20,000 nt of DNA, from the IMG/VR virus record IMGVR_UViG_3300020577_009925, one strand, 5' to 3'. Positions 72-9,113 of this stretch are shown here, piece by piece. The notes below the pieces were generated by a model that saw only the letters and a list, made by a program, of their open reading frames with translations, was not told the DNA's origin and did not search any database. The position numbers were made by a program, and so were the translations under genes. This DNA comes from an uncultured virus (IMG/VR IMGVR_UViG_3300020577_009925). Lineage: Duplodnaviria; Heunggongvirae; Uroviricota; Caudoviricetes. How positions within the stretch are numbered: the stretch's first letter is position 1; every line of letters starts with the position of its first letter.

Positions 72-473
72 TTATCCCTCAACCAGAAAGAAGTTAGGTA
101 TCTCATCGGACAAGAATAGCTCTACTACCTTGCACATCATCTCGGCTAGCTCGGGCGTAACCAGCACCAGATCATAGTCCACCATCGTTTGCCCGTACTC
201 GGTCCACGTGTAAGGTCGCAGGACCCCGTAGGCAGATCTGGTGCCCTCTCGCTCACCCCTGAGCGTCTTGATTTTGTACCACTACCTGACGACTACAACA
301 GCCACGCCGAACTTGCCGCCAAACTCTAAGTACCGGTCGTCAATAACCTCATACTCCTCACCACTGAGCTTGTAGCTAGGCCAGGAATCCTCATGGATCT
401 CCACCTTCAGCGAACTGGGCCAATACTGTGCTCCAGCGGCGACTGTCTTTGCGTCTTCAAGGTTGATCGGCAT
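72..473 (-). CDS. Hypothetical protein; 63-aa ORF (282-473) whose frame continues past a TAG to TAA at 72-74 (133 codons if read through)
   Basis: ATG 473 overlaps the end of the AAA gene, with AGGGAG SD. After TAG (284-282) the same frame reads WYKIKTLRGEREG...IPNFFLVEG* and its stop abuts the next ATG. Confidence 0.55.
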
Positions 474-1698
474 GTTGCTCCCTGTACTCTAGTCCGATAT
501 CGATACATCCAGCCACCAAGTCAGCTATCGACCCGTATTGATACTGACTGATCGCCAAATCAATAGTCGCTTGATCCAGTCCCTTGAGCATGCGGTGACA
601 TACTTCGCGGGCGATCGTTTCATCGACATTCTTAAACTCCACGATTTCCCCGGCGCGGCCTGGCCGCCTCACCGCTGGGTCAATCTTCTGATAGTCGTTG
701 GTTGTCACAAACACAGCAACACCGTCAACCTCCGCAACGCCGCTAAGGCACTGCAAGAACGTGTCAAACGACAAACCGTTATCGAGGTGAACGGGTGTTC
801 GACCATCAAACACGTTGTCGAGGTCTTCGAACAGGGCTATGCAAGGAGTATTCGCCAGTACGATCTTCCAGTAGTTAGTCAGCTCGTTACTGCTCATCGT
901 TCCCAAATCAAATTGGAAGATCGGTAGGCCGTAATCCATGGCGATCGCGCGGACCATCGAACTCTTACCCGTTCCTGGAGGACCGTAAAGACAAGCTCCG
1001 AACTTCCAAGGTATGTTTCGCTCCAGGTACCAGGCACGGCCGCGGTACCAATTCCTAAACTTAGTTACCAAGTTCTCGAGTTCGTCGGTTGTCATCGTCT
1101 GCAGAAGCGTCGGCACGCCCTTACCGGACTCGCCGATATCCTCCTGCTTGCAAGTGATAAATCTGGTTCGGCTCTGTAATGGGCCCATCGCAGGCTTAGC
1201 AGTCTGATCTCCAGGTGGCATGACATCGACGCTCTTGTCTCTCCCCTGAAACACTGTTACGCCATACCGATGCTGCCTGTCATCAGTGTTGACTGAGTAA
1301 TCCCTGGCCAGCGTCAGAAGCTCATCCCGGTCAAACGTACCTCGGATGAAACTGAGCATCTTGAAACCGCTCTGGGGATTGCCCGCATTCGCGCACGCAC
1401 CAAGCCAAACAGGCCAGATACCTAGCCACCAAAACCCTCCCTGCTCCGGCATTTCGAACATCTGTAGTTCCCATTTGTTGGTTCCCTTCATCTGGTAGAT
1501 CCCACCACCAACGCTCGTCACCCCGTGCCTAGCCTTCTTGCCGTACTTGGCGAAGTAAAGACCTAGGGCCTTAGCGGAATTCCAGTCCAGCTCAACTCGC
1601 ACGATTGCGTAGCTGGAGATGCTGATCCAAAACGACTTGACCTGATTCCAGGCCATGGCCAAAGCAGCAACAACTGCACCAATCCAAACTGTGTTCAA
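457..1698 (-). CDS. BCS1-like AAA+ ATPase with N-terminal membrane anchor
   Basis: Walker A GPPGTGKS preceded by WYLERNIPWKFGACLY (BCS1-type pre-Walker A segment), Walker B IALFEDLD, sensor-1 TTN, second region of homology DPAVRRPGR; hydrophobic N-terminus; TTG start with AGGAGAG SD. Confidence 0.85.
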   Translation of the reverse strand: MNTVWIGAVVAALAMAWNQVKSFWISISSYAIVRVELDWNSAKALGLYFAKYGKKARHGVTSVGGGIYQMKGTNKWELQMFEMPEQGGFWWLGIWPVWLGACANAGNPQSGFKMLSFIRGTFDRDELLTLARDYSVNTDDRQHRYGVTVFQGRDKSVDVMPPGDQTAKPAMGPLQSRTRFITCKQEDIGESGKGVPTLLQTMTTDELENLVTKFRNWYRGRAWYLERNIPWKFGACLYGPPGTGKSSMVRAIAMDYGLPIFQFDLGTMSSNELTNYWKIVLANTPCIALFEDLDNVFDGRTPVHLDNGLSFDTFLQCLSGVAEVDGVAVFVTTNDYQKIDPAVRRPGRAGEIVEFKNVDETIAREVCHRMLKGLDQATIDLAISQYQYGSIADLVAGCIDIGLEYREQHADQP

Positions 1699-2464: not shown

Positions 2465-3208
2465 CTAGGGCGTTGTAGTGACCGCCGGCTCTGTGCCGAC
2501 AAGAAATTTACCTAACTCAGCCGCACTGTAATCAACACTCTTGATCACTTTCGCGTCTGAGTTCCGCAATACTCGGTAGTAGCGTCTCTCGTTGATTTCG
2601 CACTGCTCGAACCGACATGGAACTCCAAGTCGCTCCTGAGCAGCAACAGTTCTTTCAGCTTCTTCCTGAGTCTCGCACAACTTGCTCATATTCGAGCGGT
2701 GCACCTCCTCAAAGGCATCAGCAAGTACCGGCAAAAAGCCTGTAAACACAGCAATGTGTCGCAGCTGTATCAACATGTCTTCGAATGTGATTCGCAGTCC
2801 AATGTTGACAACCGTCCCTACTTCATCACCCGGCCTGTTCGTCAGAGCCAAGAATCGGGACATAATCCTGTCCCACTCTGCCTTCCCAATATCCCACTTG
2901 TAAGCGAACACCGGCTTGGTGCTAGCGAGTAAGACGTCGATATTGGGGAATTTCTTCGAGTTGACGTAACCATACGACAACATCGAACCGACAACGACAT
3001 AAAAACTGTCGCAAAGACCATCCAAAATCTCTCGGCGGTTGCCCGTCTTAAATCCTGTCGTCAACTCTTCAAATTCTTCCGTCATCAAATTCACCCGAAG
3101 CTGGCGAACTTGCTCAGACTGCAATGTTGGGGTCTCAGCCTGGGTAACACCAAATGCTGAATGAAACTCCCGCAAAGCCGCGATCATGCGGTTAACAGTC
3201 AAACTCAT
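2465..3208 (-). CDS. MazG-like / all-alpha NTP pyrophosphohydrolase (DR2231/dUTPase-like) with internal insertion
   Basis: Motifs LREFHSAFG, LMTEEFEEL, EILDGLCDSFYVVVG, AFEEVHRSNMSK, DAKVIKSVDY; ATG 3208 with AAAGGGA SD. Confidence 0.85.
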   Translation of the reverse strand: MSLTVNRMIAALREFHSAFGVTQAETPTLQSEQVRQLRVNLMTEEFEELTTGFKTGNRREILDGLCDSFYVVVGSMLSYGYVNSKKFPNIDVLLASTKPVFAYKWDIGKAEWDRIMSRFLALTNRPGDEVGTVVNIGLRITFEDMLIQLRHIAVFTGFLPVLADAFEEVHRSNMSKLCETQEEAERTVAAQERLGVPCRFEQCEINERRYYRVLRNSDAKVIKSVDYSAAELGKFLVGTEPAVTTTP

Positions 3209-3242
3209 CGAATTCCCTTTGTTAAGTAACAAGGGCGGGTTG

Positions 3243-3257
3243 AGACAGCGCTGTCGC
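3243..3257 (+). repeat. Dispersed palindromic element AGACAGCGCTGTCGC, copy 1 (inside a 30-bp inverted repeat, 3235-3264)
   Basis: Exact 15-mer; intergenic, upstream of the MazG-like gene. Confidence 0.9.
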
Positions 3258-3303
3258 AACCCGCTCACTTGCTTCTGGACCGCCTGTGGCGACCATCCGT
3301 TTG

Positions 3304-3888: not shown

Positions 3889-4408
3889 TGCTGCCACCTT
3901 TGCCAATCTCGATCTTCTCCCAGCCGCAGAAACCCGTCTGATCGATGTAGACCTCACTAAGCAAGTCAGGTCGGCCAATCTCAGCAGCGAACTCAGCTAC
4001 AACCTCAATGGCCTTGCCCTTGCTCAGCGGCTCGTCGTCATAGTGAGTCCAGATCTTCTCAGTGAACTTCTGACCATCGGGACGAGCAGCATCAATACAC
4101 CAGCCATCACTATCCTGCTCGAAGATGCGAATACGCGTTGCCTCCGATGGTTGGATGTAACAGTCGAGGCTGTTCTGAAGCTCGTCGTTCATCTCCTGCA
4201 GGAACATCTCACTGGAGTCTTTGATCAACTTGTTGAAGTCGATCCGTCGCTGCGCACACCAGTGAATGCAGTTGGTCAGGAGATCGGAAACAACAACCTT
4301 TGGATTGTGCTCTAGATCTCCTGCCACGTCCGCCTTAGTCACCTTCGCAAACGTCTCTAGGGCCTGGGCGAAAAACCCAGCCCTGTCCTGATTGGTTATC
4401 TCACTCAT
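3872..4408 (-). CDS. Hypothetical phage protein (N-terminal NQDRA...SDLLTNCIHWC...IDF helical domain)
   Basis: ATGAGTGA coupling with the methyltransferase stop; 178-aa open frame. Confidence 0.8.
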   Translation of the reverse strand: MSEITNQDRAGFFAQALETFAKVTKADVAGDLEHNPKVVVSDLLTNCIHWCAQRRIDFNKLIKDSSEMFLQEMNDELQNSLDCYIQPSEATRIRIFEQDSDGWCIDAARPDGQKFTEKIWTHYDDEPLSKGKAIEVVAEFAAEIGRPDLLSEVYIDQTGFCGWEKIEIGKGGSSEVPS

Positions 4409-5267
4409 TGCTGCTTTCCAAGGTTTTGACCTTCAAGAGTCTTTTCTGAATCACGGCTGCCTGCTCCTTGCGAAGCTCAATACTGATACTCGACCGTCCG
4501 TGCTTCTTAGCCATAGCTGCCGTTGTACCTGATCCTCCAAAGACATCCAGGACGATGCCGTCCGGGGGACAGTAAATCTGCACCATCTGCTCAGCCAGCC
4601 ACTCTGGATACGGAGCCTCGTTTTCATTGGAGAGCTCGTCACCCATGTGGCCGCCGCCAACTGCGCCACACCAGAAGATGTTGCCTACGTTTACCTTTTC
4701 CGGTGGCTTGTAGTCGGTCTCGGAGATATTGCGTCCGCCGTCTTTACGCCTAGGTCTGGTTCTACCTCCAGGTGCGAACTTCGGCGGTTCTCCTGTTGCA
4801 GTAGGGTCAATCCACGCTGTTTTAGGATCGCCAACTGCGCAGATAATGAACTCCCAATTGTTGCGGAGCACCTTGAAGCGACCAGGAAGCGAGTACCGGC
4901 CGTAGATGGCGGGTTTACACATCTTGATCCCCATCCGCACAAGGTCTGCATGCAGTAGGATAGGTTCAGATGTGTAATGCATACTCTGCATTCCAGCGCC
5001 TTCAATGACCCAGCAGACCATTCCTCGAGTTACTCGCAAGCACTCGAGGAATCGCACTTTAGCCCATTCAACCCACTCCTCGCCTTTGAGGTTCCACCCG
5101 ATGCCTAGGTCCCGCTGAGCCGCATAAGGGGGACTACAGATCGTTGTCGACACGCTTTTGGATTCTCGCTTCTTCAGCCAGTTCAAGCAGTCGTCAACAA
5201 CGATTTCGTGTATCTGCACACCTTCTAACTTCGTTCCCTTGCCAGCTCTCGATGTCGGTTTACTCAT
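4401..5267 (-). CDS. Orphan beta-class amino-DNA methyltransferase (N4-cytosine or N6-adenine)
   Basis: Motif IV SPPY near the N-terminus, then EAPYPEWLAE and motif I VLDVFGGSGTT near the C-terminus; no neighbouring endonuclease-like gene. Confidence 0.9.
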   Translation of the reverse strand: MSKPTSRAGKGTKLEGVQIHEIVVDDCLNWLKKRESKSVSTTICSPPYAAQRDLGIGWNLKGEEWVEWAKVRFLECLRVTRGMVCWVIEGAGMQSMHYTSEPILLHADLVRMGIKMCKPAIYGRYSLPGRFKVLRNNWEFIICAVGDPKTAWIDPTATGEPPKFAPGGRTRPRRKDGGRNISETDYKPPEKVNVGNIFWCGAVGGGHMGDELSNENEAPYPEWLAEQMVQIYCPPDGIVLDVFGGSGTTAAMAKKHGRSSISIELRKEQAAVIQKRLLKVKTLESSNE

Positions 5268-5968: not shown

Positions 5969-6352
5969 CTACCAGTCAATGTTGATTAGATACTCACCGG
6001 CTTCGAGCTTGCCCTGAGCGTGCAGGTCATTGGCCACCATCTCTAACATCGGATAGTAGTTCCGCTGCCAAAATATGGCAACCTGCCAATCCTCAAGGCC
6101 TTCCCCGACACTGGCCGGGTCGCAGTTTTTCCAAACGTCAAACTTCACACCCATTTCATCGCCATTAACTTCGATTGGAATCGACTCATTCTCGTAGTCT
6201 TCGGCATCGGGGCATGGAACCGTCAGAGTCACCGTCCCTCGCTGTTTACATCCATCTTGCTGCTGCAACGCGTAGGTTCGGCCGTAGTTCTGCTCTACAA
6301 AATCATCCCAGTCGCTGACTTCAACAACACGTGTCAAGGTGTACTTGAGCAT
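5969..6352 (-). CDS. Hypothetical phage protein (DWDDFVEQNYGRTY...QQQDGCK...AGEYLINIDW)
   Basis: ATG with AAGGA SD; 127-aa ORF. Confidence 0.8.
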   Translation of the reverse strand: MLKYTLTRVVEVSDWDDFVEQNYGRTYALQQQDGCKQRGTVTLTVPCPDAEDYENESIPIEVNGDEMGVKFDVWKNCDPASVGEGLEDWQVAIFWQRNYYPMLEMVANDLHAQGKLEAGEYLINIDW

Positions 6353-6741
6353 GGTGGTTCCTTAGAAAAGAGAATTCTTGCTAGTTCTTGAAAATCCGTC
6401 GCGGGCACATAGATCTTAACTCGCTCACCTAGGTCAAGCTCGTCCACTCTCTGCCAAAACTCCTTGTCAGTTACACGTGAAAGTGATTCCAGCAAGCGAA
6501 GCATCGACGGCGAGCTGTCGCAATCTAAAATCGAACAGCCCAAGAGCTCTTCAGTGCTGTACTCTCGAACTGCACCTATCAAACTAGGCTGCTTAGTTCC
6601 GCGGCTCCACTGAACCTGCCACTTGTCACTTGTGGAAACATCTCGGTGAGCAGTCCCCGTGTGACCAACATCGACCCAAAAAACATCGCCTACTTCGTCA
6701 CTAACCTCGTGCGGCTTGACGCACAGTACCTTAAAAGCCAC
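6334..6741 (-). CDS. Hypothetical protein
   Basis: GTG start overlapping the upstream TAG (TAGTG), GGAGGA SD. Confidence 0.75.
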   Translation of the reverse strand: MAFKVLCVKPHEVSDEVGDVFWVDVGHTGTAHRDVSTSDKWQVQWSRGTKQPSLIGAVREYSTEELLGCSILDCDSSPSMLRLLESLSRVTDKEFWQRVDELDLGERVKIYVPATDFQELARILFSKEPPCSSTP

Positions 6742-7529
6742 TACAGTCCTCCTTCGAGAGAATCGATTGGATGCTGGTTACACGTCCCCCAGTAACGTCG
6801 TTCGTCTCCTCGCATCATCAGCAAATGCGAGATCACGTCATCAGTCGGTGCCATCGCGCCAGCCCATGTTCTGGCGTAATAGCCAATCCCATGCCAGCAA
6901 AGGCACACCAGCGGTCTAACTGGCTCATTGCCACGGCTGATGTACGCCACCGTTGGCTTGTTCTTTCGGAAGTTGTACAGAATGCCACTTCGAGCACTGG
7001 TCTCGATGAAGCTTCCGTTGACAACGTAGAGGTCAAATAGGTGCTTAGGAATCAACTCGGAAAGCTTTTGCATCGCCTTGAGCTCCGCCTCTGCGCTGAT
7101 CTGTATTTGACAGCAGAACGTCTTGATACTCATCGACGCGCGGCGAAGGGCAAACGCGTTAGGTACAACAACATGCTTGGTCTTATCGCTTCCGGGCTCT
7201 CGGTAGAGATAGATCTCTCGGCCCCTGCTATCGACCCAAAGGTTAACAACCTCACAATCTCCGTCACGAGCCACCTGCTCAAACGCCTGCTCCATGAGCT
7301 TGGTATGACGGTAGATATCGCCTTGGCCAACATCACCGTCACCACCCATTTTCGCCAAATCCGGATACGGAAACCGGTCACTGAGCATTAGCTTGGCGGT
7401 ATCGCAAGGAAGTGGATACCCGAAGTAGTGCTCTCGCTCGATGGCCAGATTACGCATTAACTCCCGGATATCACTCCAGGTGGGAAGATTATCCTCCTGC
7501 TCGGATTGGGACGCTTGTGACTTTGACAT
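6741..7529 (-). CDS. Enzyme-like hypothetical protein, partner of the upstream GG-terminated protein
   Basis: Probable start ATG 7529 (or 7457). C-terminal half has ETSARSGILYNFR, CLCWHGIGYY, PTDDVISHLLMMRGDE and CNQH, a cluster of Cys/His/Asp/Asn residues. Confidence 0.75.
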   Translation of the reverse strand: MSKSQASQSEQEDNLPTWSDIRELMRNLAIEREHYFGYPLPCDTAKLMLSDRFPYPDLAKMGGDGDVGQGDIYRHTKLMEQAFEQVARDGDCEVVNLWVDSRGREIYLYREPGSDKTKHVVVPNAFALRRASMSIKTFCCQIQISAEAELKAMQKLSELIPKHLFDLYVVNGSFIETSARSGILYNFRKNKPTVAYISRGNEPVRPLVCLCWHGIGYYARTWAGAMAPTDDVISHLLMMRGDERRYWGTCNQHPIDSLEGGL

Positions 7530-7872
7530 CAGCAGCCGGTACAGACTTCTTCCTGCCCCTCTTACCCTTTTTCGGAATCGCGTTGGGATTTGGCGGCGGT
7601 CCGAGATTTGACTCCGGTACATCACTATCGGCCGGCTTGGGTGGTCCCTGAGGACTATCCGAAACGTCTGCGATGATGTAGCTGTCGGTGTTAGCGTCAA
7701 AGTCTAGAATCCTTGTTGTTTTTCCCTCAATGTCTGCAAAGAGAATGCAGCCGCTTCGAAGGAGCGTAGTTACAGCCCGTCTGGCACGCTCAAGCTCGAT
7801 AGGATCAGCCTTATCAAACTTGAGCGTCAAATGTCCGTCGCCCACTGATAAAATATCTAACGTTCCACTCAC
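7489..7872 (-). CDS. Small protein ending in C-terminal di-glycine (…VPIRAGG*), candidate ubiquitin-like/sulfur-carrier-like modifier
   Basis: GTG 7872 in GTGA overlap, GAAGGAAG SD; compact beta-beta-alpha-beta-like N-domain, Pro/Lys-rich insert, terminal hydrophobic strand followed by GG and the stop. Confidence 0.75.
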   Translation of the reverse strand: MSGTLDILSVGDGHLTLKFDKADPIELERARRAVTTLLRSGCILFADIEGKTTRILDFDANTDSYIIADVSDSPQGPPKPADSDVPESNLGPPPNPNAIPKKGKRGRKKSVPAADVKVTSVPIRAGG

Positions 7873-8300
7873 TGGTCTTCCTTCACGCTCGTAGTTAATA
7901 GCTTGGCGATCTTCGTAGCTAACGCATACTGCCTCTTGTTGATCGCCGCATCCTGCCTTGTAGTTAGGTGCATGATCCTGCAAACTTCATGCTCGTTGAT
8001 GTCCACCACCTTCAAATGAGCTTGAGGCGCTGCGTCTGGGTCAGACATATCGTCAAACCAGCCATTCACAGCAAACGGAGGCTCATAATCATTAAGGGGG
8101 TCGTCCGGAAACAACTGATAAGCGAGCATCGCAGCAAACACCACCTGGTTGCCCAGATGCAAACAGGCTTTTGCTTCTTGCTTCAAAGCCTCTGGATTAA
8201 CCAACTCTTCAGCAGAACAGGTGGTCTCAAACGTATATTTCCTCCACGTTCCGTCAGCATACGCAATACCGACAGTAGTCTTTCCCTTACGATTACTCAT
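7869..8300 (-). CDS. Hypothetical protein
   Basis: ATGA overlap, GGAGG SD; 143-aa ORF. Confidence 0.8.
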   Translation of the reverse strand: MSNRKGKTTVGIAYADGTWRKYTFETTCSAEELVNPEALKQEAKACLHLGNQVVFAAMLAYQLFPDDPLNDYEPPFAVNGWFDDMSDPDAAPQAHLKVVDINEHEVCRIMHLTTRQDAAINKRQYALATKIAKLLTTSVKEDQ

Positions 8301-8731
8301 GTCACCTCCCAGGGTCTAATAAGTTCAACACCCTCCTGCGTCGCATCGGATCGCTCCAGCAGTAAACGATAGCCGACGTGATATCTCTGCGGAGAGTGAG
8401 AGAAAATCGTCGCATCTGGCTCCAAGTTGTTGGGGTCAGAAGCTAGATAAGCCACAACCCGGTCCCGGAACTGCTTTTGAGTTCGCCAACCTGACATCTC
8501 ATTCTCCAGCTCCGCCTGCTGCTGCCTGGCTATCGATTCAACGCTACCACTGTAACGGCGGTCCTGAACCTCTTCGATCGTTGGTGGATCACCACAATCG
8601 TACAGCGTTTCTTCGAGTCGCTCTTTGAGAACAGCACGGCAAACCTTATCCATCTTCGCTGACGTCGATACGTTGTAGTACACCGGATCACTGTCCGTCT
8701 TAAGCATCAGCACAGCAATCTGCTTACTCAT
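8297..8731 (-). CDS. Hypothetical protein
   Basis: ATGAGTAA overlap; 144-aa ORF. Confidence 0.75.
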   Translation of the reverse strand: MSKQIAVLMLKTDSDPVYYNVSTSAKMDKVCRAVLKERLEETLYDCGDPPTIEEVQDRRYSGSVESIARQQQAELENEMSGWRTQKQFRDRVVAYLASDPNNLEPDATIFSHSPQRYHVGYRLLLERSDATQEGVELIRPWEVT

Positions 8732-9113
8732 CTAGCGAGTCCCTAATTGGATGGCCAAACTGCATCCCAGCCAGTTGCACACTGCAAACAGCATCGTGGA
8801 AAAACAGCGGAAACTCCTTCGCGATGTAACCGGCATCAACGAACTCAAAGAACAGCTGTTTCATCGCAGCTTCATCAGCGTCCTTAGGCTCTTGCTCCCG
8901 CCACTGCTGAAGATTACGTCCTAGTGGAATACAGGCACAGTCATAATTGACCAGCATCTCGTAAACCATGTCCTCAAGTCGAAGCCGCTCCTTCGCCATC
9001 GGCGTGTCCCATTTGACACAGGCAATGAGCAGCTCATACGCCTTCTCACTTGGACGAATAGTCGGCAACACCCGCTCCGCGTTCTCGTCCGTATCGTAGT
9101 AATGTCTACTCAT
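8724..9113 (-). CDS. Hypothetical protein
   Basis: ATGA overlap, GGAG SD; 129-aa ORF. Confidence 0.75.
   Translation of the reverse strand: MSRHYYDTDENAERVLPTIRPSEKAYELLIACVKWDTPMAKERLRLEDMVYEMLVNYDCACIPLGRNLQQWREQEPKDADEAAMKQLFFEFVDAGYIAKEFPLFFHDAVCSVQLAGMQFGHPIRDSLDE

Follow-up and report, generated by a model that had tools for sequence, protein, structure and literature searches.

An uncultured virus of the Caudoviricetes (IMG/VR record IMGVR_UViG_3300020577_009925) carries two adjacent genes that belong together across a large phage family: gene 1, encoding a small protein that ends exactly in Gly-Gly, and a partner gene, encoding a larger protein with an invariant Cys-His site. We found the pair in a 20,000-nucleotide (nt) stretch of this genome (hereafter the window), and homologues from viral and bacterial sequences mostly retain both the Gly-Gly end and the pairing of the genes. 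The reading we favour, and hold tentatively, is that the two proteins form an obligate pair performing acyl transfer on the Gly-Gly end at the Cys-His site, without an E1 of their own. Protein tagging through a C-terminal Gly-Gly was long considered eukaryotic and has recently been found in bacterial anti-phage defence.

The genes of the window all lie on the minus strand and are tightly packed. Gene 1 starts at a GTG codon (7872) that is preceded by AAGGAAG and overlaps the upstream stop codon (GTGA). Its product terminates in VPIRAGG, with the Gly-Gly codons at 7492-7497 followed directly by TAA at 7489-7491. The original prediction, made from the letters alone, described the protein as a compact N-terminal domain, a disordered insert and a final strand ending at the stop, which is confirmed by the open reading frame (ORF; 7489-7872) and by the AlphaFold2 (AF2) model discussed below. 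It also attributed the motifs CLCWH, PTDD..SH, GDE and CNQH to the adjacent gene; all of them are present, and C211, H213, P228, D230 and E243 within them are invariant. The identity of this partner gene stands, but its start had to be corrected to ATG 7529, which makes it overlap gene 1 by 41 nt. The partner ORF is open from 7700, and the stretch PTWSDIREL...GYPLP (7407-7484) fits the family consensus P...W...R......A...GEWAG.P.P. Because ATG 7529 is the sole in-frame ATG, GTG or TTG upstream of this conserved stretch, we placed the partner at 6741-7529. A near-identical public protein call (P0004, 238 amino acids) starts at an inner ATG (7457) and is thus without 24 N-terminal residues, conserved positions among them.

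Single-sequence searches returned few relatives, 3 for gene 1 and 15 for the partner. Profiles reached much further: among 1.84 billion proteins, the partner profile retrieved 678 cluster representatives at E ≤ 1e-3, of which 476 reached E ≤ 1e-30, together with 58 IMG/VR loci, and a profile search with the gene-1 alignment retrieved 455 proteins. Using a gene-1 hidden Markov model, we found a homologue adjoining the partner in 56 of the 58 viral loci, just upstream on the same strand in 52 and just downstream in 4. The two loci without a counted neighbour consist of one with a partial partner (L053) and one in which the match lies 421 nt from the locus end (L057). The same arrangement occurs at 41 of 53 loci from bacterial genomes and metagenome-assembled genomes of many phyla, and the 12 loci lacking the neighbour are mostly partial matches or positions at contig ends. 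The hosts of the pair range from Verrucomicrobiota to Proteobacteria, Planctomycetota and Firmicutes.

The Gly-Gly end is nearly absolute. It is followed immediately by the stop codon in 55 of the 56 viral homologues of gene 1, with the consensus AV[AG][RP][TS]AGG, whereas the 56th (L048, 6669-7136) has AGG followed by a Cys-rich extension of 20 residues. Among the homologues at genome loci, 36 of 41 end in Gly-Gly, three have 2, 9 or 17 further residues, one is broken and one is divergent. A further 117 newly listed homologues include 115 that end in R[ST]AGG, one that ends in TSGD and one with SAGG plus 6 residues. Taken together, Gly-Gly precedes the stop codon in 206 of 214 unfused homologues examined, a pattern far beyond chance. 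In the viral loci the stop codon following gene 1 is TGA (25), TAA (17) or TAG (14) and the third positions of the Gly codons vary as well, indicating that selection acts on the peptide rather than on a Shine-Dalgarno sequence. The original prediction, which read the pair as a candidate ubiquitin-like modifier module, set two checks by homolog search, on the invariance of the Gly-Gly and on the linkage of the two genes, and neither of them refutes it.

Extended forms with 2-20 residues after AGG (L048, L096, L105 and L109) and four natural fusions among the cluster representatives (P0015, P0017, P0023 and P0025), in which the two proteins are joined as ...AR[ST]AGG-MS-....SIE, look like precursors needing a cut after Gly-Gly. 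In one locus (L005), the partner ATG overlaps the gene 1 TGA (…GGAGGATGAGC…), and the fusions with Gly-Gly-Met-Ser junctions probably arose from overlapping stop/start arrangements of this type. Overlaps are frequent: the closest in-frame start preceding the conserved partner region falls inside gene 1 at 32 of 48 upstream-type loci, forcing an overlap of 8-167 nt. Relative to gene 1, 47 of 56 loci have the partner in the +1 frame (binomial p 8e-15, though the loci are not independent). This bias raised the possibility of a programmed +1 frameshift joining both genes, which we rejected because there is no slippery site, the stop codons and the third bases of the Gly codons are variable, and in most cases the partner has an upstream in-frame start of its own.

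In the partner family, C211 is the only conserved Cys (C209 and C250 are variable), and it belongs to a C-x-H-P motif in which the Cys comes before the His. T229, H235, D242 and H253 are also conserved, in at least 90% of 146 sequences. A second cluster of conserved residues is found around ETSARSGILYNFR and could be a site for a substrate, a phosphate or a carboxylate. Many partners start with a basic peptide, M.K..Q.RR, which is a real feature because it is also present where the genes do not overlap (L034, L037 and L050); the window partner is without it. At the other end of the protein, the conserved C-terminus ...EGGL (family consensus PEAGL) is coded by AAGGAGG (window 6741-6760), which also serves the next gene as its ribosome-binding site; the GTG of that gene, at 6741, shares one base with the partner TAG.

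AF2 predicts gene 1 (55-row alignment; mean predicted local distance difference test, pLDDT, of 76) as a beta-beta-alpha-beta-beta-beta domain, a disordered segment from 69 to 107 and two C-terminal strands packing back on the domain. Alignment A2 of the family shows conserved positions in the N-terminal domain at L8, G11, G13, F19, M37, G41, R54, F58 and Y65. The partner model (pLDDT 75.6, and 80-96 in the C-terminal half) starts with three helices, continues in a four-strand meander that ends at C211 and closes with helices 228-241 and 243-249. No fold could be assigned to either protein; a sequence-profile search of the PDB gave 0 matches at E ≤ 10, and the only BFVD match (E 1.4e-4) is an unnamed protein.

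The two proteins are predicted to bind each other. Complex predictions gave values of 0.82, 0.82 and 0.76 for the interaction prediction score from aligned errors (ipSAE), against 0.00 for the best control; the ipSAE mark was reached by 116 of 157 solved pairs and by 2 of 215 mismatched pairs, counts that are only rough here as our own alignments were used. The runs share at least 36% of their contacts, with a partner pLDDT of at least 61. On the gene 1 side, the predicted interface comprises residues 6-17, 29-54 and 119-127, among them the conserved L8, G11, G13, M37, G41 and R54; on the partner side, it comprises residues 22-39, 48-53, 144-155, 211-217 and 224-251. Contacts with the lowest error connect partner residues 226-242 with gene 1 residues 8, 45, 52-54, 119 and 121. 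According to these models, gene 1 is predicted to dock on the strand 211-217 and the helix 228-241 of the partner with its tail and its conserved face.

For comparison with the predicted interface, inter-protein mutual information was calculated over 89 non-redundant gene-1/partner pairs, restricted to low-gap columns, with 60 shuffled pairings as control. Nine of the top 40 pairs of positions fall in the interface, while the shuffled pairings averaged 1.5 and never exceeded 5; the best four pairs (45-245, 45-148, 45-249 and 6-148) are all interface pairs. Shuffling the pairing also removes relatedness, so that this covariation is support, not proof. With gappy columns included, 0 of 30 pairs lay in the interface, the ranking then being dominated by gappy, high-entropy columns. 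In the tail, position -4 covaries best with partner position 212, the residue flanked by the invariant Cys and His, with a value of only 0.13. Covariation therefore supports the domain interface strongly and the tail weakly.

Table 1 Features of the Gly-Gly protein gene and its partner in the window.
Feature	Position	Strand	Evidence
Gene 1, 127-residue small protein with Gly-Gly tail	7489..7872	-	GTG start, TAA stop; homologues found
Gene 1 N-terminal domain, residues 1-69, beta-beta-alpha-beta-beta-beta	7666..7872	-	AF2 pLDDT 83-92 over residues 11-60
Pro/acidic linker of gene 1 (residues 70-100), variable and predicted to be disordered	7573..7665	-	pLDDT ~50; variable in both length and sequence in alignment A2
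Gene 1 basic patch KKGKRGRKK	7546..7572	-	Relatives carry an AT-hook-like RGRP core at this position
Gene 1 C-terminal strands and tail SVPAADVKVTSVPIRAGG	7492..7545	-	Strands 108-112 and 117-121 pack on the N-terminal domain in the model, pLDDT ~91
41-nt two-frame overlap, end of gene 1 and first 13 partner codons	7489..7529	-	Partner in +1 frame
Partner, 262 residues, large unannotated phage family	6741..7529	-	Profile searches, family alignment
CLCWH, with C211 and H213 where strand 205-211 ends	6891..6905	-	Both invariant in 146/146 sequences
PTDDVISHLLMMRGDE (PTDD..SH..GDE), helix 228-241, predicted docking surface for gene 1	6801..6848	-	P228, D230, R240 and E243 invariant
CNQH of partner	6771..6782	-	Motif present in sequence
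ETSARSGILYNFR, second conserved cluster, outside the predicted gene 1 interface	6966..7004	-	S178, Y185 and R188 invariant; E176, R180, S181 and F187 ≥90%

We compared 146 partner and 55 gene-1 family members with Pfam, PHROGs, PADLOC and NCBIfam at E ≤ 10, and neither protein matched a family apart from AT_hook of Pfam, found at this permissive cut-off in 6 of the 55 gene-1 members (best 0.0067). Gene 1 ends its chain in Gly-Gly as ubiquitin and sulfur carriers do, yet none of its members matched a Ub or ThiS family of Pfam, and hhalign of alignment A2 against 24 ThiS/MoaD sequences gave a probability of 0.14% over 8 columns. Similarly, the partner has the invariant Cys expected of an E2 (C211, in 146 of 146 sequences) but no His-Pro-(Asn) motif upstream of it; no member matched Prok-E2 or UQ_con, and hhalign against five genome-derived Prok-E2_B domains gave a probability of 0.4%. 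MoaE, ThiG and PP-loop families had no match among the partner members and do not appear in the fold lists, where the absence of MoaE is not decisive. The partner also gave no match to JAB, OTU, UCH or peptidase families, nor any in PADLOC or NCBIfam, and toxin and antitoxin families of Pfam, PADLOC and NCBIfam matched neither protein. Judging from these comparisons, the module may work like the ubiquitin/ThiS or E2 families but, with no detectable kinship, it cannot be filed under them. The idea of a ubiquitin-like module is partly supported: the Gly-Gly tail, the linkage and the predicted Cys-His docking are in its favour, but these comparisons showed no homology to ubiquitin, ThiS/MoaD, E2, E1 or JAB proteins.

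The neighbours of both proteins in the Atlas are unnamed viral clusters only, and a locus search with gene 1 as a single sequence returned nothing. Among 50,697 records of cultured phages, no match was obtained by blastn with window positions 6000-9000 or by tblastn with both window proteins and the L007 partner; plasmids gave no match to the L007 partner as single query. There is no second copy of the pair within the window. A full-text literature search, at the level of abstracts, found no description of such a phage pair.

The statement that no ThiF, E2 or JAB gene is nearby proved correct, as none of these families occurs among the 29 window ORFs scanned. This extends to related viruses: of 35 viral records, one has a ThiF-type E1 scoring over the cut-off and two have such a match to Prok-JAB, and 22 of the 23 records that are at least 90% complete are without an E1. 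Host controls, by comparison, had ThiS-family carriers in 11 of 14 genomes and E1s in 14 of 14. One viral record has both ThiF and JAB (L059 1-3646, the record of L052), in a classical cassette, at a distance of ~19 kb from the pair, of Prok-E2_D, DUF2016-Prok-JAB and ThiF with an SNF2-type helicase behind them; we take this cassette to resemble the PRTRC cassette.

The surroundings of the pair point to replication, recombination and DNA methylation, although the set of neighbours changes between loci. Pfam families found in a scan of 38 representatives of the neighbouring genes include RecT, YqaJ, a DnaB-like helicase, C5 and N6 methylases, DUF5131, DUF2303, integrases, PolA and exonucleases. 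A conserved third gene was sought by clustering 964 ORFs from 59 sources and rejected, no neighbour being present in more than 9 loci except for antisense artefacts. Within gene 1 homologues, the basic patch lies 21-32 residues before the C-terminus; of 55 homologues, 16 have RGRP there and 27 have [KR]G[KR]. These basic patches, the M.K..Q.RR peptides of the partners and the replication/modification gene context hint at nucleic-acid binding and at action on or near DNA.

Downstream of the pair in the window, a MazG-like/PRA-PH pyrophosphohydrolase (2465-3268, minus strand) and an N6/N4 DNA methyltransferase (4401-5267, minus strand) form a nucleotide-pool/DNA-modification block. Further along, a 413-residue protein (457-1698, minus strand) has a classical AAA domain (PF00004, residues 236-356), unusual for a phage, and an N-terminal half without a family; other loci show no linkage between its gene and the pair. 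Elsewhere, a gene of the adenylosuccinate-synthetase family (L004:7254-8285, 344 amino acids) is found 2 kb from the pair in one phage and possibly encodes a PurZ-like enzyme of 2-aminoadenine genomes, and a gene with a reverse-transcriptase domain (RVT_1, L028:465-1211) is near the pair in another locus.

The near-absolute AGG end, the rare precursors and fusions, the single invariant Cys beside an invariant His and the predicted docking argue for either chemistry on the Gly-Gly carboxyl or exact recognition of it at the Cys-His site. We propose the following mechanism, in which all of the chemistry, the acceptor and any connection with DNA are what we infer. The two genes would encode one obligate two-protein machine. 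After the disordered, basic and often AT-hook-like linker, the last ~20 residues of gene 1 would return to the compact alpha/beta domain, and the terminal ...R-x-A-G-G tail would be presented to a partner pocket around the invariant Cys211-x-His213 strand and the following helix. The partner would be a Cys-His acyl-transfer enzyme, E2-like or cysteine-transpeptidase-like in action, not in ancestry, moving the Gly-Gly carboxyl end onto Cys211 and then to an acceptor encoded outside the pair. In fused and extended forms, the same site would first cut after Gly-Gly, in the manner of the stand-alone E2 of E2-CBASS. For forms already ending in Gly-Gly, activation could be provided by a host E1-type adenylating enzyme (MoeB/ThiF class) or by reversal of hydrolysis in the tight complex.

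A more far-reaching version of this proposal, which we regard as rather unlikely, is a Gly-Gly-carboxyl chemistry of independent origin from the ubiquitin and ThiS lineages. The pair would then be a self-contained, DNA-associated phage machine whose tethered tail is loaded on the Cys-His site without a dedicated E1. In early infection, this tail would serve either for tagging host or phage proteins that are bound to DNA or for transferring a group, for example sulfur, to nucleotides or DNA.

A check of conservation revealed no conserved acceptor lysine. Together with the extensive co-varying interface, this makes a freely diffusing modifier less likely, and the predicted heterodimer, which looks permanent in the models with its tail buried in the larger subunit, would suit a carrier and synthase similar to MoaD-MoaE, ThiS-ThiG or CysO-CysM. 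In such a system, the Gly-Gly end would be charged by the host (e.g., as a thiocarboxylate through MoeB/ThiF-type E1s and sulfurtransferases) and inserted in the large subunit, which would use it to modify DNA, a nucleotide or some small molecule; the small protein would itself never be transferred. The near-universal host carriers and E1s are compatible with this arrangement, S178, Y185 and R188 outside the interface could hold the substrate, and the methylase, MazG-like and recombination/replication context would be suitable, as would the basic or AT-hook-like patches. There are also parallels in gene layout: in human MOCS2, 77 bp code both reading frames across the Gly-Gly end (PMC9607355), mirroring the two-frame overlap, and MoaX of Mycobacterium tuberculosis is a fusion needing a cut between Gly82 and Ser83 (PMC4326299), mirroring the fused forms. 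However, profile similarity to ThiS/MoaD is lacking, as are matches to MoaE, ThiG or PP-loop families and any sulfur-transfer gene nearby, and charging by a host E1 is purely conjectural; we consider a carrier-synthase system improbable, if far from negligible. The interface could also be that of a non-covalent regulatory pair, in which the partner would be an enzyme, perhaps acting on nucleic acid, and the small protein a stoichiometric regulator or antitoxin-like inhibitor whose tail plugs the Cys-His site as a pseudo-substrate. Type II antitoxins are likewise encoded by a small upstream gene with translational coupling or overlap, and have a folded N-terminal domain that is joined by a long disordered linker to a partner-binding segment at the C-terminus. 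The large conserved interface is consistent with such a pair, and the fusions show that both proteins can work as one chain. Yet a plug does not normally need an exact chain end, which is nevertheless kept in almost all unfused homologues and, as AGG, in the extended and fused forms; moreover, neither protein matches a toxin or antitoxin family and a stable toxin-antitoxin fusion would be unusual. A regulatory pair thus seems to us about as doubtful as a carrier-synthase one.

If the Cys-His site holds the Gly-Gly tail as predicted, and if the extended and fused forms are cut after Gly-Gly as they imply, the partner could be a Gly-Gly-specific cysteine protease of a deubiquitinase-like kind, stripping host ubiquitin-like conjugates of the Bil, Bub or type II CBASS systems; alternatively, as the original prediction suggested, the small protein could be a decoy substrate for those defences. 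A phage-encoded pair without an E1 is consistent with both versions, which we nonetheless rate as quite unlikely. At the nucleotide level, gene 1 of the window ends with GCA GGA GGA TAA and thus contains AGGAGG, and the terminal Gly-Gly could in principle be a by-product of a Shine-Dalgarno-like sequence for the downstream gene, the pairing being mere operon packing. This is hardly credible: the Gly codons elsewhere are GGC, GGT and GGG in many combinations with no Shine-Dalgarno sequence conserved, the partner start is upstream of the site in the window and in the 32 loci with forced overlaps, and the conserved peptide extends over AV[AG][RP][TS]AGG. Whatever likelihood is left falls to some other explanation. 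Acyl transfer by an obligate pair is still the reading that we prefer, with the tentativeness expressed above.

Phages carry a very common two-gene unit, represented by 678 partner clusters and 455 small-protein sequences, which has a ubiquitin-like outward logic without an activating enzyme or a detectable known ancestry. If covalent intermediates form, the pair would represent either a convergent invention of ubiquitin-like chemistry or a viral hijacking of host MoeB/ThiF enzymes, and it would give a function to a large block of phage 'dark matter'.

Several known systems share features with the pair. In lambda-type tail assembly, gpI is reportedly ubiquitin-like and gpK reportedly combines JAB with NlpC/P60 (attributed to Iyer et al.), so that a small phage protein with a beta-grasp-like domain is encoded there beside a peptidase, in a layout resembling that of the pair; those genes belong to a tail module, whereas the present pair is found among early, replication and methylase genes and has neither the JAB nor the NlpC/P60 domain. 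Bil (BilABCD), Bub and type II CBASS with Cap2/Cap3, along with the operon classes of Iyer, Burroughs and Aravind (2006), likewise combine a Cys enzyme with a neighbouring small protein that has Gly at its C-terminus, in a phage-bacterium conflict, but their operons encode an E1 (ThiF) and usually a JAB protein, both rare in our phage records, and their Pfam families match neither protein of the pair. Molybdopterin synthase (MoaD-MoaE) is closer and, in layout only, an equally close analogy to the E2-CBASS precedent considered next: its small subunit ends in Gly-Gly, its tail enters the large subunit, its genes are adjacent, overlapping or fused, and the adenylating enzyme is encoded elsewhere. 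The phage pair differs from it by the lack of similarity to ThiS/MoaD, MoaE or ThiG, by the invariant Cys-His at the predicted tail site, by the long disordered basic insert and by its replication/modification module setting. The closest working precedent without an E1 is the stand-alone E2 of E2-CBASS (type II 'short' CBASS), for which a preprint (10.1101/2022.05.25.493364) describes the substrate tail in a Cys/His pocket, trimming after a conserved Gly, and formation of a thioester and then an isopeptide. As in the phage pair, two proteins (CD-NTase and E2) operate there without an E1, a Gly tail enters an essential Cys/His pocket and the complex is stable (the last two are predictions in our case), and a comparable trimming after Gly would explain the extended and fused forms of the phage pair.

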